A DNA stretch of 64,000 nucleotides, from sequence record MN715356. One strand, given 5' to 3'. A program made the position numbers and the translations under genes. This document shows, in pieces, positions 1,626 through 48,233 of the stretch (its first letter is position 1; every line of letters begins with the position of its first letter). Under the pieces are notes generated by a model that had not been told where the DNA came from, did not search any database, and saw only the letters and a program-made list of their open reading frames with translations. The DNA comes from Escherichia phage vB_EcoP_EcoN5.

Positions 1626-1634
1626 GGACGTCGA

Positions 1635-1871
1635 ATGAACATTAGGCATCAATTCAATAAAGAGCACGCCGCCGCTTTGGCGGCTCTCAATCTTAACGGC
1701 AGTCTTGACGCAGCATTAGAGGCATTGAAAGAAAGACTCATGACAGAGATAGTTCAAACAGAACCTCATGAGAATAAGAAACGCGAAGATTGTTATCAAA
1801 AGTATAAAATGGTGGGTAGCTTAAAAGAGGTCATAAAAGCTGCTATCAATAGTGCAGGAGATGTTTCATAA
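1635..1871 (+). CDS. hypothetical small protein between portal and scaffold
   Basis: 78-aa ORF, co-oriented, stop overlaps next start (TAATG); no recognisable motif. Confidence 0.4.
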   Translation: MNIRHQFNKEHAAALAALNLNGSLDAALEALKERLMTEIVQTEPHENKKREDCYQKYKMVGSLKEVIKAAINSAGDVS

Positions 1872-3421: not shown

Positions 3422-3462
3422 TCGACAAATTAATTATTTAATAGTATAGGAGCTAACATAAC

Positions 3463-4521: not shown

Positions 4522-4532
4522 CAGTAGACAGT

Positions 4533-5045
4533 GTGACTGTTAGCCCTGCGTCTTTAGCAAGCCTAGAGACAGGGGCTACTCGGCAGTTCACTGCAAGCGC
4601 GGAGAAAAGTGATGGTTCTACCGAAACAACTGGCTTTACTTGGTCAGTGACAGGAGGTGGTTCTATCACTCAGTCGGGTTTGTATACTGCTCCGAGTGCG
4701 TCTCAATCCACTGATGTATCCATTACTGCAACTTTAGAGGGTGTTTCTGGTACAGCAACCATTTCTGAAATTGTTGCTCCTGCTCCTACTATTGTAGCTA
4801 AGGGTCCAATTACGGGTAAAACTGGTGGTTCTTCCACTAACTTCACTACCATGTTTACTGTAACTAATTCTGCTGCTGCGGATTACACATTTGTTGTAAC
4901 CCCTACAGAAGCTGGTACAGTAAGCGCCGCTGGTGCGTTAACCTTAGATGCTGCTGCAAGTGGCGAAGTTACTGTTCAAGCAAGTTTGACAGCTGACCCT
5001 TCCATCAATGCAACATGCACTTTTACTGGTGTAACACCTGCTTAA
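4533..5045 (+). CDS. Ig-like (Big_2-type) domain protein, possible capsid decoration or fibre protein; GTG start
   Basis: T/S/G/A-rich beta-strand pattern typical of bacterial Ig-like domains; start codon is GTG; directly downstream of capsid gene. Confidence 0.45.
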   Translation: MTVSPASLASLETGATRQFTASAEKSDGSTETTGFTWSVTGGGSITQSGLYTAPSASQSTDVSITATLEGVSGTATISEIVAPAPTIVAKGPITGKTGGSSTNFTTMFTVTNSAAADYTFVVTPTEAGTVSAAGALTLDAAASGEVTVQASLTADPSINATCTFTGVTPA

Positions 5046-27709: not shown

Positions 27710-28528
27710 TTACCAAGATTTATCTAACCATGTCCAGTCGAACAGGTCTTCCGGAGTCTGACCAACAAAGAGAAGCCGAGCATTCTCAAGCATCTTCTCT
27801 TCATCTTCAGTATCGAACTTCTTATAATATTCCATTCGTACTATATGATACATGGTCCACTTGTCTGTAACACCAGCCAACAACTTAGCTGCTGCTTTCT
27901 TCCCTATTCCTTGACGTCGAAGCTGAAGCTTACCGCCCCACATAACTTCTTTACGTTCTCCACATCCGGGGATATTATCTGTACCGTCTCCAACCAACAT
28001 CTGATAGAAGAAGTTTTGCCATGAAACTAAATCAGATACATAGTGAGGAGGAACTTCTTTCTGTCTTTCTCCACAAGCCCAACGGTAGTGCCATCCGGGA
28101 GTTATCAACAAATCCTTGTCTCTAGTACAGATGATAGTGTTCTTATCCCTACGTTGCCTTTCAGCTAGTGCATCATCAGCCTCTCTCCCAAATACATCTA
28201 TGTATTCATATTTACCTTTAATGTAATCACCAACATTTTGCCAGTGAAAAGGTCTTTCTCCGGGAGGTCTATTTGCTTTGTAGTCTTGCTGCTTAGCAAC
28301 ATCAAAACGGAAGTTACCACCTTCGCTGAAGTAGAACACAACCTTACTGCAACCTGATCGAGCTATGATTGTATCAATCTTATATTGAAGTCGTTCAATC
28401 ATGAAATTGTAATCAACTGGAACACGTCCTGTGTCAAGAAAGGGATGCTCCTGAGTAAGAGCACCCACTTCATATCGAAGAACGTCAGCATCCACTATAG
28501 CTACTTCAGGGAGCTTAACGTCTTCCAT
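27710..28528 (-). CDS. 5'-3' exonuclease / flap endonuclease (PIN-like 5'-nuclease)
   Basis: Acidic active-site clusters VAIVDADVLRYE, GREADD, TRDKDLL, GDGTDNIPG typical of FEN-type nucleases. Confidence 0.6.
   Translation of the reverse strand: MEDVKLPEVAIVDADVLRYEVGALTQEHPFLDTGRVPVDYNFMIERLQYKIDTIIARSGCSKVVFYFSEGGNFRFDVAKQQDYKANRPPGERPFHWQNVGDYIKGKYEYIDVFGREADDALAERQRRDKNTIICTRDKDLLITPGWHYRWACGERQKEVPPHYVSDLVSWQNFFYQMLVGDGTDNIPGCGERKEVMWGGKLQLRRQGIGKKAAAKLLAGVTDKWTMYHIVRMEYYKKFDTEDEEKMLENARLLFVGQTPEDLFDWTWLDKSW

Positions 28529-29056: not shown

Positions 29057-29066
<10 letters not shown>
28530..29066 (-). CDS. hypothetical protein
   Basis: 178-aa co-oriented ORF with tight spacing. Confidence 0.4.
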
Positions 29067-30552
<1,486 letters not shown>

Positions 30553-30553
<1 letters not shown>

Positions 30554-30813
30554 CACTCTATTCCACGCTCTTTCAGAGCTTCTAACAATCCATTGTGATT
30601 GGCAGCACATTCTGTGTACTGGTCCTGATACCATTCCAACGTAGTGGCTAGTGCTTTTCCTTGAGCACTCTCTAAAAAAGGTAAGTCAACCCTGCATTCA
30701 GCTTTTAGGTTTGTTGGTAAGGGCATTGATTGCCTGCTGCTGTCGATCATTGAACATGCGGATGTACTCATCACTAGCGCAGACATTATAAAAAACTGGT
30801 TTAGTTTTCTCAT
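30553..30813 (-). CDS. small lipoprotein (outer-membrane spanin-like)
   Basis: From internal ATG: signal peptide MRKLNQFFIMSALVMSTSAC with lipobox-like Cys; overlaps end of upstream TM/coiled-coil gene in another frame. Confidence 0.4.
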
Positions 30814-35376: not shown

Positions 35377-37221
35377 TTAGTGTGTATGCATCCAGTTAAG
35401 TCCAATCTGACAATCAGATGCCAGAGGACATTCCATGTTCAAATACTCACCAGCCTTCTTAACACAAAGCTCGGTGTGTTCTTTGAGTTTCTGTACATCA
35501 TTACGGTTCACTGAGAACTGGCCCTCATCGTGCATATCAATTACTTTAGCACAACGAACTCCATCTTTCTCAATCCACTTGTTAAGGAACATCATAGCGT
35601 ATTTCATAACAACAGCACCAGCGCATTGCAGGAGTGTGTTAAGGGCTTTATGAACCATAACCTTACCAGTGGCATCTCGTCTCATTGTAATCTTACGACC
35701 ATCAACACCAATCAAGTATCCTTGAGCAGCTTTCTCTGTCATACGATCAATGAGGATTGCAATACATGGGTTCTCTGCCAAGAATCGTGCTCGCATCACT
35801 GAACCTTCGTCAGCCCCACCACCTACAATCGAACCAAGCTTAGCATCACCAGCACCATAGTTGAATGCGTAGATAAACGTCTTAGCATTGTCACGAGTAG
35901 GAAGACCAGCAAGTTTCTGGTTGTGGGAGTGGATATCACCTTCAAGGAGAATATCACGATACATAATAGCAGAAGCTAAACCACGTTCTGCCAGAGCTTT
36001 CTTAGCTGGATTATTCTCTTCTATTGCTTCAGCAAGCATGTCCCTACACTCTTTAATGAGGTAGTGTGCAAGCATACGCAACTCTAACCCAGAACCATCA
36101 TACCCCAAGAATACTTCTTTACCAGCGGGTATGTAATATTTGTAAGCACCTACAGGTTTGTCTTTCTTCCCCGGCTTACCTTTTTCATAAATTACGTTAG
36201 TACCTTTTCGTATATAACAACCATCAGGAACAACGTTAGTAATAACGAAAGGACGAGAGTGATCATCATCTGAGTTATAGTCAGATTCAAACAAACTGCG
36301 ACACTCATGACCAAACAAACCACGGGAGGGAATATTAACCACGATACGATGTTTGAATCGAAAAGTCGGCGTAGCGCAGCTGTTAGCTTCTGCCGAAAGT
36401 TTACCATCTTCGCGCTCCTTTGCTATAAGTCCACTAATAAGACCTAGCCTGTGAGCCGCTACAACGCGTCTCTTAAGCAAACTTCCGACACTCCCTAGCT
36501 CACCCCCTAACCCTTCTTCAAGAGTCTCCTCGAGGTTTGTAGGAGCTGTAGGCCACTTGTTTGATGTAGCTAGTGCTATCTTAATCTCATCAAAAGTGAT
36601 AGGTCTACGTCGGTTAGGGTTTAAACCTAAACCAAATACATAAGCCTTCATGTAGTTCTTAGTTTTAAACCTAAAATGCTTCTCTAAGAACTTCCTAATA
36701 TCAGCGTCAACCATCTCGGCTGTCTGCTTCTGTTTAGCATTACCTCGCATCCAAGCTGAATACCATGCTTGGTATGTTCCATACTTTCGCATATCTTTCT
36801 TGATTTCAAAAGTATTCCAAGGTTTCTTTGATACATTAAACTCTGGAGGAAGAAAGCCCTCATCCATAAGGGCTTCTTTAACTCGTGCATCTTTCGATGG
36901 GTCAAAGTCTACGTATTCAACACAGGTGAATGCTCCACCAATATCTTCCCTCTTAAGGCCAACTCTATCGCAATAGGCTTGAGGCCACTTCTGTAAAGCT
37001 CCAGACTTCTTAAATGGCTTCATATAAGTAGAGCCATCTAATCTCATCTTAGGTAAGAGAGGAATCAGTTCTTTGTCAATATTAACAATAATCTCTTTAA
37101 GGAGGTGAACATACCACCGAGCATTTCTTCGGTTGAAACTCACTCCGTGCTTCGCTTGCTTAGAGATTATATCAGCGACAGTCATCTCTGTCAAAAATGG
37201 GAGAGCGTCCGGGTTGCTCAC
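35377..37221 (-). CDS. DNA polymerase, family A polymerase domain only (T7 gp5-like, no exonuclease domain)
   Basis: Motif A YDGSGLELRMLAHY, motif B RDNAKTFIYAFNYGAG, motif C VIDMHDEGQF; 614 aa, too short to include a proofreading domain. Confidence 0.7.
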   Translation of the reverse strand: MSNPDALPFLTEMTVADIISKQAKHGVSFNRRNARWYVHLLKEIIVNIDKELIPLLPKMRLDGSTYMKPFKKSGALQKWPQAYCDRVGLKREDIGGAFTCVEYVDFDPSKDARVKEALMDEGFLPPEFNVSKKPWNTFEIKKDMRKYGTYQAWYSAWMRGNAKQKQTAEMVDADIRKFLEKHFRFKTKNYMKAYVFGLGLNPNRRRPITFDEIKIALATSNKWPTAPTNLEETLEEGLGGELGSVGSLLKRRVVAAHRLGLISGLIAKEREDGKLSAEANSCATPTFRFKHRIVVNIPSRGLFGHECRSLFESDYNSDDDHSRPFVITNVVPDGCYIRKGTNVIYEKGKPGKKDKPVGAYKYYIPAGKEVFLGYDGSGLELRMLAHYLIKECRDMLAEAIEENNPAKKALAERGLASAIMYRDILLEGDIHSHNQKLAGLPTRDNAKTFIYAFNYGAGDAKLGSIVGGGADEGSVMRARFLAENPCIAILIDRMTEKAAQGYLIGVDGRKITMRRDATGKVMVHKALNTLLQCAGAVVMKYAMMFLNKWIEKDGVRCAKVIDMHDEGQFSVNRNDVQKLKEHTELCVKKAGEYLNMECPLASDCQIGLNWMHTH

Positions 37222-37237
37222 TTTATACTCCTTTAAA

Positions 37238-37651
37238 TTATTGGTAAATCAAATCCGTAAATGCTTGATTGTCTTCTATCACATCTAAGGATGTAGAATC
37301 AACAGCGTATGTTCTCATTGCTGCATTTGTTTGTGCCCAAGTAGGTGGGGAGTAAGAAGACCTAACCTCACGAGGTTGCTCTCGTACTAGATGAGCCACA
37401 ACTCTTTGGTTAGCGACCTCTTCTCTTTCTCGGATAGCTCTCTGGATGTAAGCCAACTTCATACCCCAAGCTTCTTCAAACTCTTGAGGGTGCTTATCAC
37501 TGATAACTACATACTGACGTTCAGGGATACCAGATCGAATTTCTGATAAAAGTTCATGGAACAAGTCCAGTTCATGTTCAGTGAGATTCATTTCAATATC
37601 ATCCCACTTGAGAACTAAGAAACGGTTTTGGTGTCTAGCTGGTAATGGCAT
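37238..37651 (-). CDS. hypothetical protein
   Basis: 137-aa co-oriented ORF. Confidence 0.4.
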   Translation of the reverse strand: MPLPARHQNRFLVLKWDDIEMNLTEHELDLFHELLSEIRSGIPERQYVVISDKHPQEFEEAWGMKLAYIQRAIREREEVANQRVVAHLVREQPREVRSSYSPPTWAQTNAAMRTYAVDSTSLDVIEDNQAFTDLIYQ

Positions 37652-37652
37652 T

Positions 37653-37811
37653 CTACTCCACCTCTACTCTAACGTAAGTTCTCTCGCCAACATCATCTTT
37701 CCAGACCCATGACTTGGCATCTTCTTCAGACTTAAAAGCTTTCACAACGCTGTATCCACCTTCCCATTCATCACCAAACCAGCGCTGTCCTACGTAAACA
37801 TATTCTTTCAT
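37653..37811 (-). CDS. small hypothetical protein (52 aa)
   Basis: Unlisted short ORF MKEYVYVGQRWFGDEW... filling the gap between neighbouring genes. Confidence 0.25.
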   Translation of the reverse strand: MKEYVYVGQRWFGDEWEGGYSVVKAFKSEEDAKSWVWKDDVGERTYVRVEVE

Positions 37812-37814
37812 TAT

Positions 37815-38090
37815 TTAACCTTTTGGGAATGGCATTAAAAATTCCATAGCAGATTTAATTTCATTATTGATTCGTGCATCTCGATAAGAGATAAACTTAC
37901 CTTTGCTATCACGTAACATTACATGAGTTCTAGCTGTTACGTGGGGAAGTAATGTAATACTAGTTGGGATTCTATCAATCCCTACAGAACATCTGTCAAT
38001 AGTTTTGCTTTCAGTTAACAAATAAGACCAAGTCTGCTCTGGATGGTTAGGGTATGTGTCTCGAATCTGAACCATAGCTAACTTATTCAT
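37815..38090 (-). CDS. hypothetical small protein, tandem paralog A
   Basis: Shares ...TART.V.LR...GKFISY...PFPKG with adjacent gene. Confidence 0.4.
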   Translation of the reverse strand: MNKLAMVQIRDTYPNHPEQTWSYLLTESKTIDRCSVGIDRIPTSITLLPHVTARTHVMLRDSKGKFISYRDARINNEIKSAMEFLMPFPKG

Positions 38091-38091
38091 A

Positions 38092-38349
38092 TTAAACTCC
38101 TTTAGGGAATGGGATGAGGTTTTCTACTGCAACACGGTACTCTTTCTCTACATCTTTATTCTTGTAGGAAATGAATTTACCATCAGCACCACGGAGGATT
38201 ACATTAGTACGAGCTGTTTTTGGGTTATGACCAATCTGGTTTGCAATGAGACTGACGTTGTGTTTAGTATTATGATTATTGGTGAATTTCCACTTAGCCA
38301 GACGGTTAGTCATTACATCAATGATAGTTACGGTTTTTACAATAGACAT
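38092..38349 (-). CDS. hypothetical small protein, tandem paralog B
   Basis: Shares ...TARTNVILRGADGKFISY...LIPFPKG with adjacent gene. Confidence 0.4.
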   Translation of the reverse strand: MSIVKTVTIIDVMTNRLAKWKFTNNHNTKHNVSLIANQIGHNPKTARTNVILRGADGKFISYKNKDVEKEYRVAVENLIPFPKGV

Positions 38350-38428
38350 ATTTGTTACCTAAGAAGTTTAGTTTGGTTTATATAAAAGAAAAGGCCACCC
38401 ATTTGGGTAGCCTCGTATTACGATGAGC

Positions 38429-38923
38429 TTAAAGCTCCTTTAAAGCATGGAGTATTGCTGTATGGCTCACGCCAAATAACTTACCGAGACCTCTAGAGCC
38501 ATAATCTCTAGAACCTTTTACATACATTTGTTTGATCTTTACAACATCTACAGATGATAGTTTGGTAGCTGCATTATGATCACGAGATTTTCCAACATTC
38601 AAGCCCGTGTCGAATGCATGTCTCATGTTTTCAGAAGGAGTCACCCATTCAAGATTCTCTACCCTGTTATCAGATTTAATTCCATTTATATGGTTTATCT
38701 CTGGATAGTTGTTAGGGTTTGGTATCAAATGTGTTGCTATAAGTCTGTGAGCCTTCCAATGCCTACCCTCGAAAAAGATGCCTATATAACCTTTTCGGTT
38801 TATATGACCAGCCTCTTTGACGGGATGACTCTTGTTCCACTTACGACCTTTTTCTGTAGATGAAGTAAAGAAGAGCTTTCCAGATTTTTCATCATAAGAA
38901 AGCCAACTTCTAATAGGAATCAC
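38429..38923 (-). CDS. HNH homing endonuclease
   Basis: Motif EINHINGIKSDNRVENLEWVTPSENMRH. Confidence 0.6.
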   Translation of the reverse strand: MIPIRSWLSYDEKSGKLFFTSSTEKGRKWNKSHPVKEAGHINRKGYIGIFFEGRHWKAHRLIATHLIPNPNNYPEINHINGIKSDNRVENLEWVTPSENMRHAFDTGLNVGKSRDHNAATKLSSVDVVKIKQMYVKGSRDYGSRGLGKLFGVSHTAILHALKEL

Positions 38924-39240
38924 TGACTCAGTGCCCCTTTTCGCTTAGCTGCTCCAGCCGCTTTTCCAGCTCGATCACCACTTTTGCCGCCGTTTGAACG
39001 GTTTGAGCTGACTGATTCAACACGTAAGTTGCTTGACGCATTAGAGCCTCCAGACTTGACAGCTCGTTTGTGTCCAACATCTTTACCTCTGACAGCAGCT
39101 TTTCCATCGCGCTTTTCAACGATGCGACGTGCACGGTGGCGCTGAGCATCTCCGCTCTTGCTCCCAACGCCTGTCTCACCACGGGCAATTGCGGTACGTC
39201 TTTCTTGTGCATAATCTCTCTTTCCTACATGGTCTGCCAT
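38920..39240 (-). CDS. hypothetical basic low-complexity protein (frame uncertain; alternative ORF 38928..39212)
   Basis: Two long minus-strand ORFs in different frames cover the same DNA; this one abuts the HNH start. Confidence 0.3.
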   Translation of the reverse strand: MADHVGKRDYAQERRTAIARGETGVGSKSGDAQRHRARRIVEKRDGKAAVRGKDVGHKRAVKSGGSNASSNLRVESVSSNRSNGGKSGDRAGKAAGAAKRKGALSQ

Positions 39241-39294
39241 TTAGAACTCCTTAATATATCAGTGTACACTAAGGAGTATACATTATGGATGCTA

Positions 39295-39482
39295 TTAAAA
39301 CTCTGCTAAGTATTTAATATCAGAGGCATATACCTCATCAAAGGAGATAACTTCCCCGTTGTAAAGAAGTTCTATCTTCAATATACCAGAGCATTTGGTG
39401 TCTTTAGAATCAACCCTGATAGAGAGTTTATCAACTATCTGAGCTTTAATCTCTTCTATTACTGACTCTTGAGTATTACTCA
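39295..39482 (-). CDS. hypothetical small protein
   Basis: ORF 39295..39543 trimmed to GTG start after upstream stop. Confidence 0.3.
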
Positions 39483-39661
39483 CTCCACCCTCCCGGTGGA
39501 ACAAAATCATCAGGAACGTCAATGATAGTAGGTTCTCCATCATTCATGCAGGTGTCTTCATTGAACTCTTCACACTCAAAACATGCTCGTTCGATATTTT
39601 TGTAGAAGTCGATGGTTGCTGAACCATCACCACAATCTCGGATAACTAAAGCGACTTTCAT
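39476..39661 (-). CDS. hypothetical small Cys-containing protein
   Basis: 61-aa ORF, 4-nt overlap with PhoH gene. Confidence 0.35.
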   Translation of the reverse strand: MKVALVIRDCGDGSATIDFYKNIERACFECEEFNEDTCMNDGEPTIIDVPDDFVPPGGWSE

Positions 39662-40401
39662 TTATCTTGTCCTTTTTCCATTGCTTTAACAATCGCCTTA
39701 CAGAAACCAGAACGAACAATGTCATCTGATTCACCATCTACAATCTCAGCGAACTCATACAGATCATGTTCATCAATAAAGTTAGTAGCCCAAGTAAGAC
39801 CACTCTCACGACCACGCATATCATGCTGGTTTGTATCACCCATACAGAACAATTGAGAGGTTTCTCCCAATCGAGTCATGATGGAGAAGGCTTCATCTTT
39901 AGTGGTGTTCTGGAACTCATCAACGATAACGATAGCATCATTGAAAGAACGACCACGGAGATATTCCAGAGGTACAAATTCAATATTACTGTTACCAAGC
40001 TGGCATTCATAGAACCCCTTACCATATCGCTGAGTAATAACATCAATGATAGGCATCAGGTACGGTTCAAACTTCTCACGCATTCCTCCCGGAAGTAACC
40101 CAAGAGAGTTGCCCATTCCGACCGAAGGTCGACTCAGGATGATCTTCTGAATCTTACCACTCTTCAGTGCATCAATAACCGTGGAAGTGATTACAAAGGT
40201 CTTACCACAGCCCGCAGGAGCGTCTGTGAACACAACTTGTTTAGTCTTGATAGCATTTAGTAGTTCAGACTGAAACTGGTTCTGAGGTACTACAGGCTTC
40301 GCTAAAACCACCTCTTCAAACTCTCGCTTACCTTTACGAGTGACAAGTGCTTCCCGACGAAGGTCTTTCCGTGATTCTTTCCGTGATTGACGACGACTCA
40401 T
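39658..40401 (-). CDS. phoH: PhoH-like ATPase
   Basis: Walker A DAPAGCGKT and PhoH-type core (IILSRP, IVIVDEFQN). Confidence 0.65.
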   Translation of the reverse strand: MSRRQSRKESRKDLRREALVTRKGKREFEEVVLAKPVVPQNQFQSELLNAIKTKQVVFTDAPAGCGKTFVITSTVIDALKSGKIQKIILSRPSVGMGNSLGLLPGGMREKFEPYLMPIIDVITQRYGKGFYECQLGNSNIEFVPLEYLRGRSFNDAIVIVDEFQNTTKDEAFSIMTRLGETSQLFCMGDTNQHDMRGRESGLTWATNFIDEHDLYEFAEIVDGESDDIVRSGFCKAIVKAMEKGQDK

Positions 40402-40595
40402 TTACGCTCTCCAATTTCTTCGTAATGACATTCAGTAGTTAAACAATCTTTACAGATTGCTGTATAAACCCTGACGTTAGTAAATCGTTTGTTCTTCCCT
40501 TTGGTTGGAGAGCCTTTGGCAAGCTCTCTGATAACCTTGTTACTTAAATGAAGGTTTGTCCCTTCACATTTAGAGCACTTCACCACAATGTCCAT
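40398..40595 (-). CDS. small zinc-ribbon-like protein
   Basis: 65 aa with CSKCEG...CKDC pairs. Confidence 0.35.
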   Translation of the reverse strand: MDIVVKCSKCEGTNLHLSNKVIRELAKGSPTKGKNKRFTNVRVYTAICKDCLTTECHYEEIGERK

Positions 40596-40780
40596 TCAGT
40601 AAGAGACCACAGAGAGTCACCTATGTTGGCATTGTCATTCCTGATGAGGTCTTTGATTTTATCAACATCAGTCAAGTGAGTCACATTCAAAACATCCTCA
40701 ACATCCGGGGCATATTTAAATATGGCAACAATACTGTTGAGATCTTCAGCATATCTTTCTAGAACATAAACTGAACTCAT
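40580..40780 (-). CDS. hypothetical small protein
   Basis: 66-aa co-oriented ORF. Confidence 0.35.
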   Translation of the reverse strand: MSSVYVLERYAEDLNSIVAIFKYAPDVEDVLNVTHLTDVDKIKDLIRNDNANIGDSLWSLTEWTLW

Positions 40781-40983
40781 AAAGCATTAACCTCTCTAAG
40801 ATACCACCACTCATCCTCAACACCTTTACGACCTCCGCCATTCATAACCCAACGCATCATGTCATCAGATATTCCAAAAGGTTTAAGTTTTGCATAGTTA
40901 GGCTTTTCTAAGAACACAGCTTCAAAATACTCACCATCTTGATCATACTGGTTGATTTCTCTTGTTAGTACCCATACTTTCAT
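40777..40983 (-). CDS. hypothetical small protein
   Basis: 68-aa co-oriented ORF. Confidence 0.35.
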   Translation of the reverse strand: MKVWVLTREINQYDQDGEYFEAVFLEKPNYAKLKPFGISDDMMRWVMNGGGRKGVEDEWWYLREVNAL

Positions 40984-41299
40984 GACTCTTCTCTTTATGA
41001 AGTCTATAAACAGCTGTCGCTATACAAGCAACAGCTTCATTATGCGGGAGATGCATACCTGTAGAACCATCCCAATCTTTGAACTCGTTGTCAAAAACTC
41101 CGGTAGGTTCTGGATAGAGGGCTTGCAACTCAACCAAATCGTTAGCAACTTGTTGCCATTTATCATCAGACCAGATAGGGTCATCCAACCAGTAATACAA
41201 ATAGGAATGGATGATCAATTGCCTTCTATGCCGATTGATTACTTCAGCGGGACTTATCTCATTTCCATTTGAAGTCCTAAATGTATTACTGTCAATCAT
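40943..41299 (-). CDS. hypothetical protein
   Basis: 118-aa co-oriented ORF. Confidence 0.35.
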   Translation of the reverse strand: MIDSNTFRTSNGNEISPAEVINRHRRQLIIHSYLYYWLDDPIWSDDKWQQVANDLVELQALYPEPTGVFDNEFKDWDGSTGMHLPHNEAVACIATAVYRLHKEKSHESMGTNKRNQPV

Positions 41300-41550
41300 T
41301 TAACAACCTTAAATTTGAATGTTGTTGGGTGATAATAATGCAACCTGTTAATGGTGTGCTTTGTTTCAAGGTATATCCTGCAAGAGTGACACATGACATG
41401 AGTCAGACCAGTTACAGGATTAGGTTTAAAGTTAGCGACAGGTTTCTCTTTCTTACAGAAGCTACATACTTTCTTTTCCATCTTTTCTCCAGTGGTCAAC
41501 GAATTGCTGAAACACTCTATGGTCGAATGTGAAACTTCGAGCAATCCCAC
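41296..41550 (-). CDS. small zinc-finger-like protein
   Basis: 84 aa with CSFCKK...CHSC pairs. Confidence 0.35.
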   Translation of the reverse strand: MGLLEVSHSTIECFSNSLTTGEKMEKKVCSFCKKEKPVANFKPNPVTGLTHVMCHSCRIYLETKHTINRLHYYHPTTFKFKVVK

Positions 41551-41695
41551 ACTCCACGAAAGTAGAAGGCATATAGTCTACATCATCTTTAGATGTATGA
41601 CCATAAACTTGAATAAGCTTTTTAATCTTATCCTTCTCTCTTCGAGGAAGCATCCTAAATGCCTCCTGAATATCTGTAATGTGTTTGATTTTCAT
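41462..41695 (-). CDS. hypothetical small protein
   Basis: 77-aa ORF; 5' overlap with neighbour makes start uncertain. Confidence 0.3.
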   Translation of the reverse strand: MKIKHITDIQEAFRMLPRREKDKIKKLIQVYGHTSKDDVDYMPSTFVECGIARSFTFDHRVFQQFVDHWRKDGKESM

Positions 41696-41707
41696 CAGAA
41701 ATTCCTG

Positions 41708-41878
41708 CTAATCCTCTGAGTTGTGGGAACAGCAATATTCACATACTCCACAACAAGGGCAAATTTCTACACTTGGGTCGTATGCATCATCAACTGTCAT
41801 CCCACACTTAGTGCAGAACACATCATCATCATCTTCTTCCAATATTAACTCTCCAAAGTTTTCTTCAGGGCTGCCCAT
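41708..41878 (-). CDS. small Cys-rich protein (56 aa)
   Basis: Unlisted ORF with CTKCG...CPCCGVCEYCC; overlaps 3' end of ThyX-like gene; no strong RBS. Confidence 0.2.
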   Translation of the reverse strand: MGSPEENFGELILEEDDDDVFCTKCGMTVDDAYDPSVEICPCCGVCEYCCSHNSED

Positions 41879-42501
41879 GAGATTGGGTAGATCTTAGCCA
41901 TCTCTTCATCCAGAGATTGGGCAAATACTCGAACTTCATATTGAGCATGAGAGGAGAGTCGCTGACGACACAACTCAAACCAGCCATATAAAGAACCAGT
42001 CCACACCCACTCAGTGATCATTCCCTGAGGAAGAACAAATCGGGCTTGCTCTGGTGCAACGAATTCGATCAACTTGTCATATGCTGCTAGAGAAGCTTCA
42101 TATGCATCATTAATCAACATTAATGCTTCAGCTCGCTCTCCATCGATGAGTTGAACCCCTGAACCTGCATGGAGGTCCGAAGGTCTCGCAAAAATCTCTT
42201 TAGGGATGAAGACTTCAACTGCTCCATCTTTATACCGCCGGGACATTTCGTTCCACGAGAATCCAACCTGATGCTTGCCCAACTGTCTCGCAATTGCGAT
42301 AGGTGCTTTGCATCGGAAACTGACTTGCGGGTGTCGGAATGGGGTAACATGCTTCTCTCTTGCGAGGAAGTTGATGAGACGTTCATCACGTTCATTTAAA
42401 TCACCTTCACGGGTTACGCCAAAGGAAACTCGAGCTGCGTTTACTACGCTACGATCACTTCCCATAGCTTCGATTAATGTTGCTTGTAATTGTTCATTCA
42501 T
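41845..42501 (-). CDS. thyX: flavin-dependent thymidylate synthase-like protein (ThyX family, divergent signature)
   Basis: AARVSF, TPFRHP, KAPIAIARQ, NEMSRRY resemble ThyX blocks, but the expected RHR-x7-S motif reads KHQ-x8-S. Confidence 0.5.
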   Translation of the reverse strand: MNEQLQATLIEAMGSDRSVVNAARVSFGVTREGDLNERDERLINFLAREKHVTPFRHPQVSFRCKAPIAIARQLGKHQVGFSWNEMSRRYKDGAVEVFIPKEIFARPSDLHAGSGVQLIDGERAEALMLINDAYEASLAAYDKLIEFVAPEQARFVLPQGMITEWVWTGSLYGWFELCRQRLSSHAQYEVRVFAQSLDEEMAKIYPISWAALKKTLES

Positions 42502-42516
42502 CCGTGAATTTCCTTA

Positions 42517-42726
42517 TTAATATTCTTTTACATAATAAACCACTAAGGTTCCCTTCTCTGACAATGTTGATTTATGTAAGCTTACTTTACTATAAATCTT
42601 TGGAGCCATCTTAAGAGCCTTCTTAAAACGGCGAGCATCTTTACGAGTAGCAAAGTGCTCTGTAACAGGTATAGCCGGGTCTTGGTAGAGGTAATATACC
42701 ACCGTCCAATATTTTTTCATAATCAA
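42517..42726 (-). CDS. hypothetical small protein (member of 3-copy family)
   Basis: 69 aa; shares W...TRK(D/E)AR.(F/A)KK...(V/I)S(L/I)H...G..Y pattern with 44373..44582 and 44582..44791. Confidence 0.4.
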   Translation of the reverse strand: MIMKKYWTVVYYLYQDPAIPVTEHFATRKDARRFKKALKMAPKIYSKVSLHKSTLSEKGTLVVYYVKEY

Positions 42727-42995
42727 ACACCTAGGGCAGTAGTTAAGAATGCTTTCAGGTTTGCTTCAGTCTGCATACCAGAGAGGCTATAGTGTGCACC
42801 ACTATTACGGTCAGGTACAACGAAAGCAGGAATGCTTCGTACACCATACTTAATAGCTTGCTCACGACCATCGCCTTCAAGAATATTGATCTCTTCCACT
42901 TCTACATCAAACTCCTTAACAACCTTCTCAAAGGTAGGAGCCATTGCTTTACATGGAGCACACTGATTACTATAAAACTTAATTACTTTAGACAT
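42723..42995 (-). CDS. thioredoxin/glutaredoxin-like protein
   Basis: Active-site CAPC in N-terminal beta-alpha unit (KFYSNQCAPCK). Confidence 0.55.
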   Translation of the reverse strand: MSKVIKFYSNQCAPCKAMAPTFEKVVKEFDVEVEEINILEGDGREQAIKYGVRSIPAFVVPDRNSGAHYSLSGMQTEANLKAFLTTALGV

Positions 42996-43165
42996 TAATA
43001 ACCCTCGTTAACAAATTCTTTAAGGTGTCGTTCTGTGGTAGGGATTACAATGTAATCTTTGTACCCTTGAGCTTTGGCTAAATCCTCAGCTATCTTTTTA
43101 GTAGCACCCAATGCCATCACACACTGACAAACAATCACCGTGTGGGCTTTATATTCGTCCTTCAT
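42995..43165 (-). CDS. small hypothetical protein (56 aa, CQC motif)
   Basis: Unlisted short ORF; stop overlaps thioredoxin start. Confidence 0.25.
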   Translation of the reverse strand: MKDEYKAHTVIVCQCVMALGATKKIAEDLAKAQGYKDYIVIPTTERHLKEFVNEGY

Positions 43166-43174
43166 TTAAGAACC

Positions 43175-43354
43175 TTATGCAGTCAGGAGGTGAAGCAGGA
43201 ATGGGATAACAACAGCTACGATAACCATGATAGTTGATGCTGTTTGAATCTCACCTTTCTTGTCAGGGGTTTCTTCAATAAGCTTACCAGAAGCCCAATA
43301 AATACCACCACCAATAAAGATAGCCCAAATACCCCATACGATTGCTGATAACAT
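43175..43354 (-). CDS. small two-TM membrane protein (59 aa)
   Basis: Unlisted ORF MLSAIVWGIWAIFIGGGIYWA...ASTIMVIVAVVIPFLLHLL with two hydrophobic segments. Confidence 0.3.
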   Translation of the reverse strand: MLSAIVWGIWAIFIGGGIYWASGKLIEETPDKKGEIQTASTIMVIVAVVIPFLLHLLTA

Positions 43355-43414
43355 ATATCTATATCCTTATAAACAAGTTCGCCCCACCTCGGGTTAGGAG
43401 ACAGGGCGTAGGTT

Positions 43415-44026
43415 TTAGTAAGACACATCACCACTTGAGTGGGACATGTTGCTCTTGACAAAGTAGCAATACTTACCAAGGCCTTCATTAATTTCTTGAA
43501 GCATACTCTGATCAACTGGATAAGTGGCTAAATCACCATCAAACTCATCCATCTTCTCAATAATACACATCAAGGTCATGCACATATCAGAGAGCATACC
43601 GTCCATGTCTAGGTCAGCATTACCCTCTGAGAACCAAGCATGGGAGAGATAGTTGGCTGCTGTAGCATCAACTTTAACACAGTGGTATCGCATACGTTCA
43701 GCAATACGATCTCCTACTTGTCGTGCGTAATCTTCCAGCTCGTCAAACATACCATGAACACCCTGGAATCCTGCACCAGAGACGTTCCAGTGGTAGTTTT
43801 TAGCTTTGATGTGCAAGAGTTCCATGTTAGCTTGTAAGCAGCTCAGGATGTGTTCTAGGCTGTTTCCACTAATCATGCCTTGCATTGTTTCAAGGCGAGA
43901 GATTGAAAGCTCAGACCGGTCTAACATATTATAGTCGGAACGACCAATCTCAGGTAAATCAAAGACATTCTTATGCATTTGGGTTTTCTCCATCAAGTTC
44001 AACTGAGTTAGCAACGTTACGTGCAA
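43415..44026 (-). CDS. Dps/ferritin-like protein
   Basis: Motif HWNVSGAGFQGVHGMFDELEDYARQVGDRIAERM resembles the Dps ferroxidase-centre helix pair. Confidence 0.5.
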   Translation of the reverse strand: MHVTLLTQLNLMEKTQMHKNVFDLPEIGRSDYNMLDRSELSISRLETMQGMISGNSLEHILSCLQANMELLHIKAKNYHWNVSGAGFQGVHGMFDELEDYARQVGDRIAERMRYHCVKVDATAANYLSHAWFSEGNADLDMDGMLSDMCMTLMCIIEKMDEFDGDLATYPVDQSMLQEINEGLGKYCYFVKSNMSHSSGDVSY

Positions 44027-44300
44027 TATTATCCATTACCTGCTGGGTAATTACGATGCAGTTCTGTGGGTCTACTGACTTAGAACGCCCCATTTCAGGG
44101 TCATACACCTTAACTCGCTTAGCAGTTGAACCTGTAACCTGAAGAACCTTCAACAGATATCCCTGATTACCAATAGACCAAGCAACAACATCACGATTCT
44201 TGATAAAGCGACCAAGCATATCACGATGATAAAACTGTTGCATCACCTTGGATTTTGTAATCTCTTCAGTGGGCGGGGCCACTTTACTCAAATCTAACAT
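43971..44300 (-). CDS. hypothetical protein
   Basis: 109-aa co-oriented ORF. Confidence 0.35.
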   Translation of the reverse strand: MLDLSKVAPPTEEITKSKVMQQFYHRDMLGRFIKNRDVVAWSIGNQGYLLKVLQVTGSTAKRVKVYDPEMGRSKSVDPQNCIVITQQVMDNIARNVANSVELDGENPNA

Positions 44301-44372
44301 AACTCTCTCCTGTAAAATACAAATTCTTATTGTACTCTATATACATTTGAGAGTTACCATATCTACTACCAA

Positions 44373-44582
44373 TCAGTAGTAAACATTCCGAGATAGCATA
44401 CAAGTACCTTCTGAGAATTCAACCCAACGATGTATGCTAACATGTTCAACTATACCGACCAGAGCTTTCATATTCTTTTTAGCAATACGAGCCTCTTTGC
44501 GAGTATTAAACAGTTTGATATTATCTTTACCTATGTGTTGTTCATGATTCCAGACAACACGAATAGCCCACATCTTTTTCAT
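44373..44582 (-). CDS. hypothetical small protein (member of 3-copy family)
   Basis: 69 aa, paralog of 42517..42726 and 44582..44791. Confidence 0.4.
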   Translation of the reverse strand: MKKMWAIRVVWNHEQHIGKDNIKLFNTRKEARIAKKNMKALVGIVEHVSIHRWVEFSEGTCMLSRNVYY

Positions 44583-44791
44583 TAGTAGTGTACCTTTCCA
44601 CCGATATAAACACGACCAGAGGAATACTCTCTGGCCTTATGAATGCTGATGTTCTTGATCATGTCCATGTTAAACATAGACTTTTTAAAATCTCGAGCTT
44701 GTTGGCGAGTAGGCAGTGCAGTCATAGTCATACCACCTGATGCCCACTTAATCTTTGCTAACCAAAACTGTCTCATAGTGATTGGTCTCAT
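44582..44791 (-). CDS. hypothetical small protein (member of 3-copy family)
   Basis: 69 aa, tandem paralog of 44373..44582. Confidence 0.4.
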   Translation of the reverse strand: MRPITMRQFWLAKIKWASGGMTMTALPTRQQARDFKKSMFNMDMIKNISIHKAREYSSGRVYIGGKVHY

Positions 44792-44832
44792 TTTATTAAA
44801 CTCTTTAAATATTATTGCTATGGATTATAACA

Positions 44833-45054
44833 TTAGGTCTCGATAAGTCGACTGATATCATAACTAACATACGGAGATATTAGGTTATTTTCAGGAGCAA
44901 TCCCTCGACAAGCAATAACAATATCATATTTCCCAGAGCCGTGAACTTCGTGGAAGATTTCAACTGCCTTATCTTTTTCAGTGGAGAATTGTATCGGATA
45001 CACTTCACCTCTTTTGTAGGGGACTATAACATACAGATCTACTGTTTTATGCAT
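44833..45054 (-). CDS. hypothetical small protein
   Basis: 73-aa co-oriented ORF. Confidence 0.35.
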   Translation of the reverse strand: MHKTVDLYVIVPYKRGEVYPIQFSTEKDKAVEIFHEVHGSGKYDIVIACRGIAPENNLISPYVSYDISRLIET

Positions 45055-45057
45055 ACC

Positions 45058-45258
45058 TCACTGCTCCATTTCACTATCGTTTGACCAAGCTAGGCTGTGA
45101 TGTTTGAATTCACCTTTCAGCTCCTTAGTATGATTATTGTCAAGTTGGGTTTGTTTAACAATTAACCCCACATCAAATTCTGATACAGGCTTCTCTCCTT
45201 CTTCTAAGTTGTTGTTATAAACACTCCACAGAAGCTCGGTCATTTTTTCATTAGTCAT
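45058..45258 (-). CDS. hypothetical small protein
   Basis: 66-aa co-oriented ORF. Confidence 0.35.
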   Translation of the reverse strand: MTNEKMTELLWSVYNNNLEEGEKPVSEFDVGLIVKQTQLDNNHTKELKGEFKHHSLAWSNDSEMEQ

Positions 45259-45783
45259 CTATCTTTCATCCACATTAAAGGAGAGATGAAGTCTACTCCT
45301 CATAGACTTAGCCAAAAGCTTTGCCTCTTCAAGAGTTTTCACTCCATATACAGACTCACGTTTACCATCTTTTTGGACAGATACACAGAACGTTCCACCT
45401 TTCTCTTGGTAGACATTCTTGATTCCTAGTTTGTTATCAACCCTTGTCTTAGCATTCTGACTGTTCTCAGAGTGAGAGCACTTTCTCAGGTTAGTTTCTT
45501 CTAGATTTTCTCTATTACCGTCAGCATGATCTATTTGATATTCATCCGATAAATCCTCACCAGTATAAAGAACAAAAAGAATCCTATGATTATGGACATG
45601 AACTCCTCCTAATGGAATTTGATAATATCCATCTTTTGTGAGCTTACCAGCAGGTTTACCTACTATATCATTAGCAAACTTACTAGGCTTCCTTTTCCAA
45701 GAAAGCCCTGAAGGTGATGACATGTCTATATTAAAGAGATCAACTACCTCATCATAGCATATCAGCATGGTTTGTTCCACCAA
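45259..45783 (-). CDS. HNH homing endonuclease with AP2-like DNA-binding domain
   Basis: Motif YQIDHADGNRENLEETNLRKCSHSEN plus C-terminal YGVKTLEEAKLLAKSMR. Confidence 0.55.
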   Translation of the reverse strand: MVEQTMLICYDEVVDLFNIDMSSPSGLSWKRKPSKFANDIVGKPAGKLTKDGYYQIPLGGVHVHNHRILFVLYTGEDLSDEYQIDHADGNRENLEETNLRKCSHSENSQNAKTRVDNKLGIKNVYQEKGGTFCVSVQKDGKRESVYGVKTLEEAKLLAKSMRSRLHLSFNVDER

Positions 45784-46306
45784 AAGCTTTTGTTGGCCCT
45801 TGTTGGTTATTATATGAACCTTTCGTTGCGTAGCTGTCCTCTTCAGATGAGGAATGCTTAAAGAACTCCATTTGACCTATACGCATCCCCGGTTTAATTA
45901 GCAGAGAGTGATGTTGTAGGACATTCTTGAATTCCATAGTTAACTGACTGCCATGCCAACCGCCATCAGCATGACCAGCGTGCATGTGCTCTAAGAAGCA
46001 ACGACCGACAGTAGATCGTAGCATGAAGTCACAGCTAATGTTATCTGGAAGATTGAATGTCTCCACTGTATGAGCTAAGAAGCATTCACCCGGTTTGATC
46101 ACCAACCCTTCCTCTGGAATCATAACCTCATTGAAGTTAGGGGATTCTTTAGCAGAGATATCAACAACCCCATTAGCTGCACCTTCCATCAGAACACGAT
46201 CTCCAATACGAACGTCAATGCTGGAGGAATTAACAGCTGAGTGTGGTGCATCAATAACACCATCATCAATTAATTTATGTAACTCTGGGCTTCCTAGTAA
46301 ACTCAT
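45752..46306 (-). CDS. dcd: dCTP deaminase (Dcd/dUTPase-fold)
   Basis: Motif HAGHADGGWHGSQLTMEFKN resembles the Dcd active-site block. Confidence 0.55.
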   Translation of the reverse strand: MSLLGSPELHKLIDDGVIDAPHSAVNSSSIDVRIGDRVLMEGAANGVVDISAKESPNFNEVMIPEEGLVIKPGECFLAHTVETFNLPDNISCDFMLRSTVGRCFLEHMHAGHADGGWHGSQLTMEFKNVLQHHSLLIKPGMRIGQMEFFKHSSSEEDSYATKGSYNNQQGPTKAFGGTNHADML

Positions 46307-46315
46307 TCTTATTCC

Positions 46316-47677
46316 TTAGTTATTTGTTTCCATGTCAAAAGAGATTCCACGACCCGCTTCATCGGCAAACCGAACTGTACGGGTTTGAGGTTCTAATACT
46401 TCAGGGTTGTTAGCAACAAAGCGATCAGCGAGACTGCGACTGACGGTCTCAGCAAGTTCCTCATGAGAAGGAATATCAAGACTGCCTACCACATCTTGGG
46501 TCACGCCTTCATCAGTCCACACAGCTCTAACAGGTGCGTTGATATCACCAGCAGCAAAACCCTGACCAGAGAACTGGTGACGGCTAACAGTCAAACCATT
46601 TGGTCGACCATTAGAACGTCTAGACAACCACTGCTCAAACGAATCGCTTGTGATACCAAGGGCTTCTTCAAAAGATGTTCTACGAGTAGGGCTTACTCTT
46701 CGTAACTCTTGTGCTCGACGCATTGCAGGGGCTACAAACACCCCTTCAATTGCATTGTGCCGATTAGGTTCATCTTCTCGACCAAGCAGATCACCGCCTG
46801 TGTTAGTCGTTAAATTTGTTAACCCTTCAGACCAATACGCATAAATTTGACCAGACCCGTGAACGCTTGACATTAACAGAATCTCTTCATAAGGGATTCC
46901 AAAGAATAGACTCATGTCTCGGTTAACACAATATTGAGCACTTGTCGTATCCTCAATAAGAGCAACCTGACCTCGTTCGTTGACCAGTTGGCTAACTGGT
47001 TGAGGTGTGGGAAGATATCGAGTTTGGGCCATGTATTGATGTGCAGCTGCTGGAGAGGAAAATCTCAACACTTGCGAGTTAGGCCACTTCTTGTGAACAT
47101 ATCTGATTTCACGACTAGAAACAACCACTGGACAAGGGGCGGTCATAGCCAAGTATCCGTGAGAAGTCATGAATAAGTTGTCAAGAGTCATCGCACCACG
47201 GCACATCATAGGAAAATTATCCAATACCTCTTCAATAGAAGTAGGATAATTAAACATGAATTGGATACGAACCCCATTCCACTGAAACTCAATAATATCA
47301 GTGAACGTTAATTGAGAACTCCCAGCATAGGATTCGTTTGTAGCTTCAGCAAGAAGGGATGCATATTCAATATCTTGTGACTCTAGCCATTCCTTCACAT
47401 TACTTTCAATCTCTCTTCCAAGAGCTTGCCAACGATCAGTTGGGACGAAAGTATTTTGAGTTCTTGGTGTTTGTCCTCTGACAATAAAGATATCAATGTC
47501 ATGTGGAGCCATGTTATTAAGTACAGCATCTCGAACAGCCCCACCAGTAATGATGGGACAGATACCGTCTGGAACCAAGTTGTTATTAATCAACTGTTCA
47601 ATGAAGTTACGACCAACAGTGATATCAGGTTGTTGAGCAACCTTATCTTCAATTTGGTTAATCGGGATAACAATCAT
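46316..47677 (-). CDS. nucleotidyltransferase, tRNA CCA-adding/poly(A) polymerase head-domain family
   Basis: Motif ITGGAVRDAVL...HDIDIFIV equals the GGxVRD...DxD signature; start set to second ATG to avoid overlap (longer form to 47734 possible). Confidence 0.5.
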   Translation of the reverse strand: MIVIPINQIEDKVAQQPDITVGRNFIEQLINNNLVPDGICPIITGGAVRDAVLNNMAPHDIDIFIVRGQTPRTQNTFVPTDRWQALGREIESNVKEWLESQDIEYASLLAEATNESYAGSSQLTFTDIIEFQWNGVRIQFMFNYPTSIEEVLDNFPMMCRGAMTLDNLFMTSHGYLAMTAPCPVVVSSREIRYVHKKWPNSQVLRFSSPAAAHQYMAQTRYLPTPQPVSQLVNERGQVALIEDTTSAQYCVNRDMSLFFGIPYEEILLMSSVHGSGQIYAYWSEGLTNLTTNTGGDLLGREDEPNRHNAIEGVFVAPAMRRAQELRRVSPTRRTSFEEALGITSDSFEQWLSRRSNGRPNGLTVSRHQFSGQGFAAGDINAPVRAVWTDEGVTQDVVGSLDIPSHEELAETVSRSLADRFVANNPEVLEPQTRTVRFADEAGRGISFDMETNN

Positions 47678-47678
47678 T

Positions 47679-48233
47679 TTACATTTTCCAATATAATGAA
47701 GGTGGGTCGTAAGGGTCGAATCCTGTGAGTTCACACAAGAAAAGATAAACCTTAACGGTTAAGTTAACGTCCTGTTCACAATAAGTAAACATATCTTCAG
47801 TGAAAGCATCCCATGCTTCCTCTTGCTCACCGTAATCTCCTTTAAGTTCCTCTAAGAACTCACCCCATTGCTTCAAACCATGACCTCTTGGGCCATGTCT
47901 AGGGTCGCCTTTCGGATACTCAGGACTGTCACCAATACGGTCAGGTTTAAGATATCGACTAAGACATAAAGTGTCAAAGACATTAAAATGATATTTAATC
48001 AAAGAAGGATACATCTTCTTCAGAGCAGGCAAGTCGAAGTCAATAATATTATGACCCACTAGTACATCTGCTTCTGTAAGTTTACGAATCCCGTCTTCAA
48101 TTTGGTGAGGCCGATAGCCCCACCTTTCACCAGTTTCAACATCGAAGATGTAAATACACCACACTTTAGTTATGTCATCGTACAGTGCATTACTTTCGAT
48201 ATCAAATGCAAACACTTTCTTTTTCTTTACCAC
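47679..48233 (-). CDS. 3'-5' proofreading exonuclease (DnaQ-like, T7 DNA polymerase N-terminal-domain-like), separate gene
   Basis: Exo [10 protein letters not shown], Exo [14 protein letters not shown], Exo III YCEQDV; 184-aa stand-alone ORF. Confidence 0.6.

Follow-up and report, generated by a model that had tools for sequence, protein, structure and literature searches.

Separate exonuclease and polymerase genes for the T7-type DNA polymerase of a Kuravirus: an old and already known split

A T7-type DNA polymerase encoded by two genes

The window analysed here, the whole 64,000-nucleotide stretch of DNA from Escherichia phage vB_EcoP_EcoN5 (sequence record MN715356), comes from a phiEco32-like E. 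coli podophage that the RefSeq classification of its relatives places in the genus Kuravirus, subfamily Gordonclarkvirinae. In this window, the T7-type family A DNA polymerase is encoded by two genes on the same strand, one for the exonuclease (184 residues, 47679..48233, minus strand) and one for the polymerase (614 residues, 35377..37221, minus strand). An initial annotation of this DNA had described a T7-like polymerase divided in this way, with the two genes about 10 kb apart, and both points hold: the two products align to T7 gp5, and the two open reading frames (ORFs) are separated by 10,457 nt. We consider it likely that the replicative polymerase of this phage is a T7-type family A enzyme encoded as two polypeptides that reassemble non-covalently into a T7 gp5-like enzyme, and that the split is old. 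The split is already known, and the window holds an ordinary member of a kind that has been annotated since 2008 and occurs in a large phage group. The DNA of the polymerase gene is 97.6% identical to that of the Escherichia phages IMEP8, NJ01 and 172-1, and the 17-kb stretch around the split matches 99 phage records, nearly all of them from Escherichia or Shigella phages.

The 184-residue protein is predicted to be a DEDDy 3'-5' proofreading exonuclease subunit of the T7 gp5 type, the counterpart of T7 gp5 residues 1-207. It matches the Pfam family DNA_pol_A_exo1 (PF01612; E 1e-8, 35.6 bits, cut-off 23.6), and its matches in the PDB are T7 DNA polymerase only, with residues 9-159 aligned to T7 gp5 3-178 (E 1e-11). 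The residues D11/E13 of Exo I, D67 of Exo II and Y151/D155 of Exo III correspond to D5/E7, D65 and Y170/D174 of T7, and every element of the DEDDy signature (D-x-E in Exo I, D in Exo II, Y-x3-D in Exo III) is present. Pfam, PDB and motif alignment thus agree with the initial annotation, which had seen the three proofreading motifs and a likeness to the N-terminus of T7 polymerase. Two PHROGs families named 'DNA polymerase exonuclease subunit' are matched as well, phrog_403 (E 2e-75) and phrog_38876 (E 1e-38). By a hand count from the length column, the 150 best representatives include about 82 proteins of 550 residues or more, in which the match is N-terminal, and about 43 proteins of up to 300 residues that stand alone.

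The sole Pfam match of the 614-residue protein is DNA_pol_A (PF00476), covering residues 361-611 with 82 bits against a cut-off of 34. T7 gp5 is its top match by sequence (E 6e-33), the alignment running from about T7 residue 208 to the C-terminal His, so that the protein represents the counterpart of T7 residues 208-704. The initial annotation had located polymerase motifs A, B and C in this separate gene, and all three align with T7 gp5: D375 (motif A) with D475, R443/K447/Y451 (motif B) with R518/K522/Y526, and H564-D565-E566 (motif C) with the HDE at 653-655. An AlphaFold2 model built on 64 homologues reached a mean predicted local distance difference test score (pLDDT) of 91.3. The right-hand fold of thumb, palm and fingers in this model is closest to T7 gp5, which accounts for all of the best 27 matches in a Foldseek search of the PDB (best E 5.6e-27). 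The N-terminal 270 residues of the model are made up of thumb helices, a small beta/alpha element and a helical insertion; neither Pfam nor the model revealed an exonuclease domain, and no DEDD-type domain is present in the modelled structure. The initial annotation had made the split depend on two points, and on both the result was in its favour: the 614-residue protein has no exonuclease domain of its own, and the 184-residue protein groups with the N-termini of T7-type polymerases rather than with unrelated DEDD nucleases. The polymerase gene is a single uninterrupted ORF of 614 codons, with neither an intron nor a homing-endonuclease ORF inside.

When concatenated, the exonuclease and the polymerase are collinear with T7 gp5 from end to end (MAFFT alignment), with 35% identity over the aligned columns. 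The exonuclease ends in ...SLYW182-K-M, where W182 aligns with T7 W207, and the polymerase begins at the equivalent of T7 S208, placing the break two residues past this Trp. Both window proteins also align, in unchanged order, with a fused metagenomic relative of 611 residues (P0112): residues 2-145 of P0112 are 39% identical to the exonuclease, and residues 164-281 and 303-611 are 39% and 44% identical to the polymerase. Because the alignments with T7 gp5 and with this fused relative are collinear, the break is a clean cut in the interdomain linker that leaves both folds whole. In principle, a split intein of the kind known from cyanobacterial DnaE could splice the two translated halves together, or their separation could be an assembly artefact, but both explanations can practically be dismissed. 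The intein has nothing but the precedent of split-intein polymerases in its favour, and no space is left for intein halves, since the alignment with T7 gp5 reaches to within two residues of the exonuclease stop codon and resumes at about residue 5-12 of the polymerase. In addition, about 99 independently sequenced phage records show the arrangement. Correspondingly, the alignments with T7 gp5 and P0112 showed no intein halves at the exonuclease C-terminus or the polymerase N-terminus, the junction having no unaligned residues, and we rejected a frameshift together with the split intein and the artefact on the same grounds.

The gene order around the two halves also follows T7. In the direction of transcription, a T7 gp4-type primase/helicase of 596 residues (48227..50017, minus strand; DnaB_C and Toprim_2 domains) precedes the exonuclease, which is followed by the spacer, the polymerase and a FEN-like 5'-3' exonuclease of 272 residues (27710..28528, minus strand; 5_3_exonuc_N, E 6.5e-6, under the Pfam cut-off), an analogue of T7 gp6. 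This order corresponds to T7 gp4, gp5 and gp6, and the locus has the T7 order with gene 5 pulled apart at the domain boundary. The spacer is occupied by genes for a nucleotidyltransferase, dCTP deaminase, Dps-like protein, thioredoxin, ThyX, an Nlig-Ia protein and PhoH, together with two HNH endonuclease genes. About 31 minus-strand ORFs of at least 50 residues tile the gap, more than the roughly 25 genes given in the initial annotation; in annotated relatives, the halves are separated by 20 genes in phiEco32 and by 25 in ES17.

The split in related phages

The division into two genes has been recorded for the type phage and for several relatives. In RefSeq, phiEco32 gp74 is a "DNA polymerase exonuclease subunit" and gp53 a "DNA polymerase; lacks 5'-3' and 3'-5' exonuclease domains". 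Two papers, from 2012 and 2023, describe the separation for LUZ24-like and phiEco32-like phages: the phage tf paper states that the polymerase and the proofreading exonuclease are separate genes in all LUZ24-group phages (PMC3517423), and the YF01/Kuravirus paper lists the polymerase, the 5'-3' exonuclease and the 3'-5' exonuclease as each separately encoded (PMC9965538). A passage of the phage tf paper, citing Savalia 2008, reports the same separation for phiEco32 (PMC3517423). An independent fission of exonuclease and polymerase was described for S-SBP1-like T7-like cyanophages, where the AlphaFold2 complex superposes on the unsplit polymerase (Czernecki et al. 2023, PMC10201439). Considering that the split stands in the RefSeq record of the type phage, in PHROGs names and in at least three papers on this or an equivalent split, it carries little weight as a discovery.

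Comparison with phiEco32 showed that the two window proteins are nearly identical to gp74 (179/182 residues, 98%) and gp53 (606/614 residues, 99%), and gene order, strand and the overlap of the helicase and exonuclease genes are shared. In contrast, the spacer measures 8.0 kb in phiEco32 and 10.5 kb in the window, the extra DNA of the window including two HNH genes and several small ORFs. A more distant counterpart is the LUZ24/PaP3/tf group (Bruynoghevirus), whose proteins are annotated 'DNA polymerase part I / part II'. Its 'part II' proteins are 39-42% identical to the window polymerase over the full length, and the order of helicase, exonuclease, small genes and polymerase is the same. In the Bruynoghevirus Baskent_P1_112, the genes run amidoligase, gamma-glutamyl cyclotransferase, primase/helicase, exonuclease (175 residues), spacer and polymerase (545 residues), and the upstream neighbours are those of the window. 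Bruynoghevirus differs from the window in its short spacer (1.7 kb, 6 genes) and in its polymerase, which is shorter because two of the three insertions of the window protein described below, the first and the third, are smaller.

We further compared the lengths of the spacer. It spans 0.9 kb with 3 genes in metagenomic contig L011, 1.7 kb with 6 small genes in Baskent_P1_112, 3.2 kb with 10 genes in metagenomic contig L010, 8.0 kb with 20 genes in phiEco32 and 10.5 kb with about 31 ORFs in the window; in metagenomic contig L009, it exceeds 10 kb with the exonuclease end not reached and has NrdD/NrdG genes in between. The order of helicase, exonuclease, spacer and polymerase recurs in ES17, phiEco32, Bruynoghevirus and the contigs L010 and L011. 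The window conforms to it: the exonuclease has a gene of its own immediately following that of the primase/helicase, and the gene for the polymerase alone lies farther along the same strand. In addition, every complete locus examined with a polymerase-only gene also has an exonuclease gene. The full-length homologues nearest to the polymerase all have 490-620 residues and show DNA_pol_A with no exonuclease domain recorded in the precomputed Pfam annotation from which domain content was read. The split is old and is common to Bruynoghevirus (LUZ24-like) and many uncultured phages.

Fused relatives, on the other hand, keep a single polymerase gene. On the contigs of P0112 (18.6 kb) and P0117 (about 45 kb), the order is T7-like, with the helicase, one gene of 214-222 residues and a fused exonuclease-polymerase. 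A rough neighbour-joining tree based on the palm/fingers core, with T7 as root, places two fused sequences, P0117 and P0120, outside all polymerase-only ones but P0110. The simplest reading of these data would be one old fission, after which the gap between the halves grew into a variable gene slot. The comparative picture, with a split that seems to be single and old, fused relatives that branch close to the family base and a spacer of 0.9 to more than 10 kb, is a small addition to what had been described. In the 119-kb contig L009, from a distant relative, we also observed that the anaerobic ribonucleotide reductase genes NrdD/NrdG lie upstream of the polymerase gene (650-4613); therefore, different nucleotide-metabolism genes fill this region in different lineages.

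Predicted assembly of the two-part enzyme

According to the mechanism that we favour, the 184-residue exonuclease would be made from a gene overlapping that of the primase/helicase, and the 614-residue polymerase, comprising thumb, palm and fingers, from a gene 10.5 kb further on. The two proteins would then associate, without a covalent link, to form an enzyme like T7 gp5. Its exonuclease would proofread the primer end produced by the polymerase, and the assembled enzyme would work together with the gp4-like primase/helicase.

Several known systems provide a measure for this proposal. T7 gp5 (PDB 1T7P, 2AJQ) is the top match by sequence and fold for both halves. The window proteins have all of its exonuclease and polymerase motifs, down to the C-terminal His and a Tyr where T7 has Y526, and the genomic context also agrees, with a gp4-like helicase upstream and a gp6-like 5'-3' exonuclease downstream. 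However, the T7 enzyme is a single chain of 704 residues with a 76-residue thioredoxin-binding domain that employs the host thioredoxin, whereas the window encodes two chains, a 55-residue element in the thumb and three extra insertions in the polymerase. The S-SBP1-like cyanophages (PMC10201439) have the exonuclease and polymerase of a T7-type PolA in separate genes and a shortened thioredoxin-binding domain, and they are predicted to keep the exonuclease-polymerase complex. In contrast to the window group, where the genes lie 0.9 to more than 10 kb apart in an old and broad clade, the cyanophage genes are adjacent and were separated by a recent 1-nt frameshift. In principle, E. coli DNA polymerase III presents the same solution, as the DEDD proofreading nuclease epsilon (DnaQ) is a separate subunit of the replicative polymerase alpha (DnaE); because its polymerase belongs to the unrelated family C, this is an analogy only.

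Compared to T7 and the fused relatives, the window polymerase has three insertions, at residues 133-243, 309-366 and 387-422. Insertions 1 and 2 are also found in most other polymerase-only family members, where they are smaller, and insertion 3 (36 residues compared to 8) is confined to the Kuravirus-like branch. One possibility is that the insertions provide a docking surface for the free exonuclease. The same insertions could, however, alter the docking of the exonuclease or prevent it, and this counts against an old split followed by reassembly, as do two further points: the tree described above carries no support values, and our search of the literature found no experiment on binding between exonuclease and polymerase or on the nuclease activity of the 184-residue protein.

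To our knowledge, no split T7-type polymerase of the old, widely separated kind has been studied biochemically. Kuraviruses have E. coli as host and serve in phage-therapy work, and they should therefore offer a convenient system for asking whether a family A polymerase can proofread with a non-covalent exonuclease and whether a phage thioredoxin can serve as processivity factor.

The phage thioredoxin and the thumb element

The spacer encodes a phage thioredoxin of 90 residues with a CAPC active site (42723..42995, minus strand; PF00085, E 4e-13), a gene that the initial annotation had correctly placed in the interval. Compared to E. coli TrxA, about 20 residues are missing from its N-terminus. 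Homologues are found only in C3-morphotype phages of Escherichia, Shigella, Proteus, Salmonella and Cronobacter (119 records), and the homologue search detected none in Pseudomonas, Vibrio or Aeromonas phages, nor in Bruynoghevirus.

In the polymerase, a structured element of 55 residues (codons 56-110; 36892..37056, minus strand) lies between thumb helices H and H1, at the site of the 76-residue thioredoxin-binding domain of T7 (residues 262-337). AlphaFold2 places strands at 59-66 and 98-104 and a helix at 78-87, with block-mean pLDDT values of about 88-92. Alignment by HMMER and BLAST paired polymerase residues 63-134 with T7 295-362 at about 30% identity (BLAST E 5.6e-5 against T7 gp5 alone), and the identity of the element itself with the C-terminal half of the T7 thioredoxin-binding domain is likewise about 30%. 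Its length is 52-57 residues in all 64 family members, which include Bruynoghevirus, Vp_R1 and fused relatives, as compared to 78 residues in T7 over the same columns. Because relatives without a phage thioredoxin keep the element, it does not track the thioredoxin.

These features raise the question of whether the phage thioredoxin is a dedicated third subunit that makes the polymerase processive by binding the thumb element, a role played for T7 gp5 by the thioredoxin of E. coli. The presence of a conserved, structured element exactly at the site of the T7 domain and the retention of the gene across the Kuravirus/7-11/Privateer clade speak for such a role, and a thioredoxin-polymerase partnership has already been proposed for phage Privateer and its C3-morphotype relatives, Kuravirus included (PMC7881722). 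We nevertheless regard it as doubtful. The element is also present in relatives without a phage thioredoxin and is about 23 residues shorter than the T7 domain, the thioredoxin has CAPC in place of CGPC and a Ser in place of E. coli G74, and its gene is located among nucleotide-metabolism genes, adjoining ThyX. Modelling of cyanophage Syn5 likewise argued against a processivity role of the phage thioredoxin (bioRxiv 10.1101/2025.10.05.680603). An alternative ligand of the element is suggested by the helicase of the window, whose C-terminal tail is acidic and ends in Trp, comparable to the ...SNDTDF of T7 gp4. In T7, this acidic gp4 tail is a second ligand of the thumb domain, and the fold matches of the polymerase include PDB 6p7e, a complex of this kind.

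A more elaborate scheme seems less likely still. In this case, the phage would supply all parts of its polymerase: the exonuclease and the polymerase would dock as in T7 gp5, the truncated CAPC thioredoxin would replace that of the host on the shortened thumb element, and the spacer with its middle promoters would set the ratio of exonuclease to polymerase.

Expression and possible uncoupling of the exonuclease

The exonuclease gene is closely tied to its neighbours. Its start is overlapped by 7 nt by the 3' end of the helicase gene, and immediately downstream lies the nucleotidyltransferase gene (46316..47677, minus strand, the longest ORF extending to 47734), whose probable ATG at 47677 overlaps the exonuclease stop codon (ATGA) and whose longest ORF matches phrog_12715 from residue 20 onwards. 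Because of these overlaps, the arrangement fits co-translation of helicase, exonuclease and nucleotidyltransferase. The nucleotidyltransferase has 472 residues, or 453 from the probable start, with a weak match to a PolyA_pol/CCA-type head domain (E 9e-4) and a long C-terminal half of no assigned function that is conserved as phrog_12715.

For phiEco32, the element of gp36-dependent middle/late promoters and its mapped positions upstream of genes 58 and 68 have been published (PMC8948821). In the window, TAATGTATA occurs as an exact match at 39277..39285 (minus strand), upstream of the gene 58 homologue, and AAATGTATA, with one mismatch to TAATGTATA, at 44340..44348 (minus strand), upstream of the gene 68 homologue, both sites lying between the exonuclease and the polymerase. 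Across the window, the TAATGTATA motif is not enriched (16 matches compared to 18.7 expected), and the two matches, assigned by the published gene position only, are probably middle promoters. The polymerase gene, unlike the exonuclease gene, would then probably be located downstream of two middle promoters.

Such a layout might indicate that the 184-residue exonuclease is no longer a partner of the polymerase and acts alone or with the helicase, for example as a trimmer of free 3' ends, leaving a polymerase without proofreading. Besides the two probable promoters between the genes, this possibility could draw on the position of the exonuclease gene, which is always linked to that of the helicase but in no case to that of the polymerase, and on the large insertions of the split-clade polymerases that are absent from fused relatives. 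The adjacency of helicase and exonuclease, however, is simply the ancestral order of T7 gp4 followed by gp5. Moreover, all catalytic residues are kept in a protein that is 98% conserved within the genus, an exonuclease gene accompanies the polymerase-only gene in every complete locus examined, and for the comparable split in S-SBP1, the complex is predicted to persist (PMC10201439). Given these points, we find an uncoupled exonuclease improbable and favour the two-polypeptide enzyme that reassembles.

Homing endonucleases in the replication module

Two HNH_3 homing-type endonucleases are encoded between the halves, both on the minus strand. One (38429..38923; PF13392, E 9e-11; phrog_59) is located between the homologues of phiEco32 genes 58 and 57, and the other (45259..45783; PF13392, E 2e-9; phrog_99) between the dCTP deaminase gene and the homologue of phiEco32 gene 71. 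The initial annotation had counted three such genes in the interval; two of them are there, as Pfam and PHROGs scans of every tiling ORF gave two only. A BLAST search of the two HNH proteins against all ORFs of the window located the third, with NUMOD4 and HNH_3 domains, outside the interval at 50646..51182 (minus strand), upstream of the gamma-glutamyl cyclotransferase and helicase genes, where it is inserted between the gamma-glutamyl cyclotransferase gene and the homologue of phiEco32 gene 78.

The initial annotation had also suggested that the split is a footprint of homing endonucleases, i.e. that an HNH-mediated break or insertion at the exonuclease/polymerase junction parted the halves and left the present HNH genes as remnants. 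The occurrence of three HNH_3 genes in the replication module is in line with this suggestion, as is the finding that polymerase genes of relatives are broken by group I introns with endonuclease VII or HNH ORFs. Yet phiEco32 has the same split with none of the three HNH genes, and the genes that flank them in the window are adjacent in phiEco32 or separated by a short gap. In ES17, the HNH genes occupy partly different positions, and Bruynoghevirus, L010 and L011 are split with short spacers in which no HNH gene is annotated or recorded. Within the window, the HNH genes are 1.9 kb and 1.2 kb away from the exonuclease and polymerase genes, neither abutting them. Finally, the known insertions target catalytic motifs and not the domain boundary, and the Bas93 polymerase is annotated as a joined, spliced coding sequence. 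Nothing in the data points to an ancient homing-endonuclease event, and we judge this origin to be highly improbable. Because the HNH genes are missing from phiEco32, sit at partly different sites in ES17 and do not abut the exonuclease or polymerase gene, those of the window therefore represent recent strain-level insertions into a much older arrangement.

Two interrupted polymerase genes were seen among close relatives. In Bas93, motif B is interrupted near codon 445 by a group I intron with an endonuclease VII ORF (RF00028, 43.9 bits, E 6.5e-9; L003 1637-2305), and in PE006, an insertion with a homing-endonuclease (HNH) ORF lies near motif C, beside a weaker RF00028 match (28.7 bits; L004 ~2020-2600), both scores being under the Rfam gathering score of 50. 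Truncated polymerase homologues of about 450 residues probably reflect such insertions, their length fitting the insertion point in Bas93.

Neighbouring genes

Two other products of the spacer have annotations in relatives that differ from their domain content. The 118-residue protein encoded at 40943-41299 (minus strand) is annotated 'DNA ligase' in relatives but comprises only the NAD+-binding Ia domain of NAD-dependent DNA ligase (PF22745, E 6e-35); because it has neither the adenylation nor the OB domain, it cannot be a ligase on its own. The 203-residue ORF at 43415-44026 (minus strand) encodes a Dps/ferritin-like 'DNA binding protein' (PHROG match at residues 51-196), and its homologue is called 'integrase' in the RefSeq record of ES17, which looks like a mis-annotation. 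Downstream of the polymerase, at 29057-30634 (minus strand), genes for a Macro-domain protein (30113-30634), a phage sigma factor (29446-30093) and a SLOG/YAcAr-family protein (29057-29449) are located side by side.

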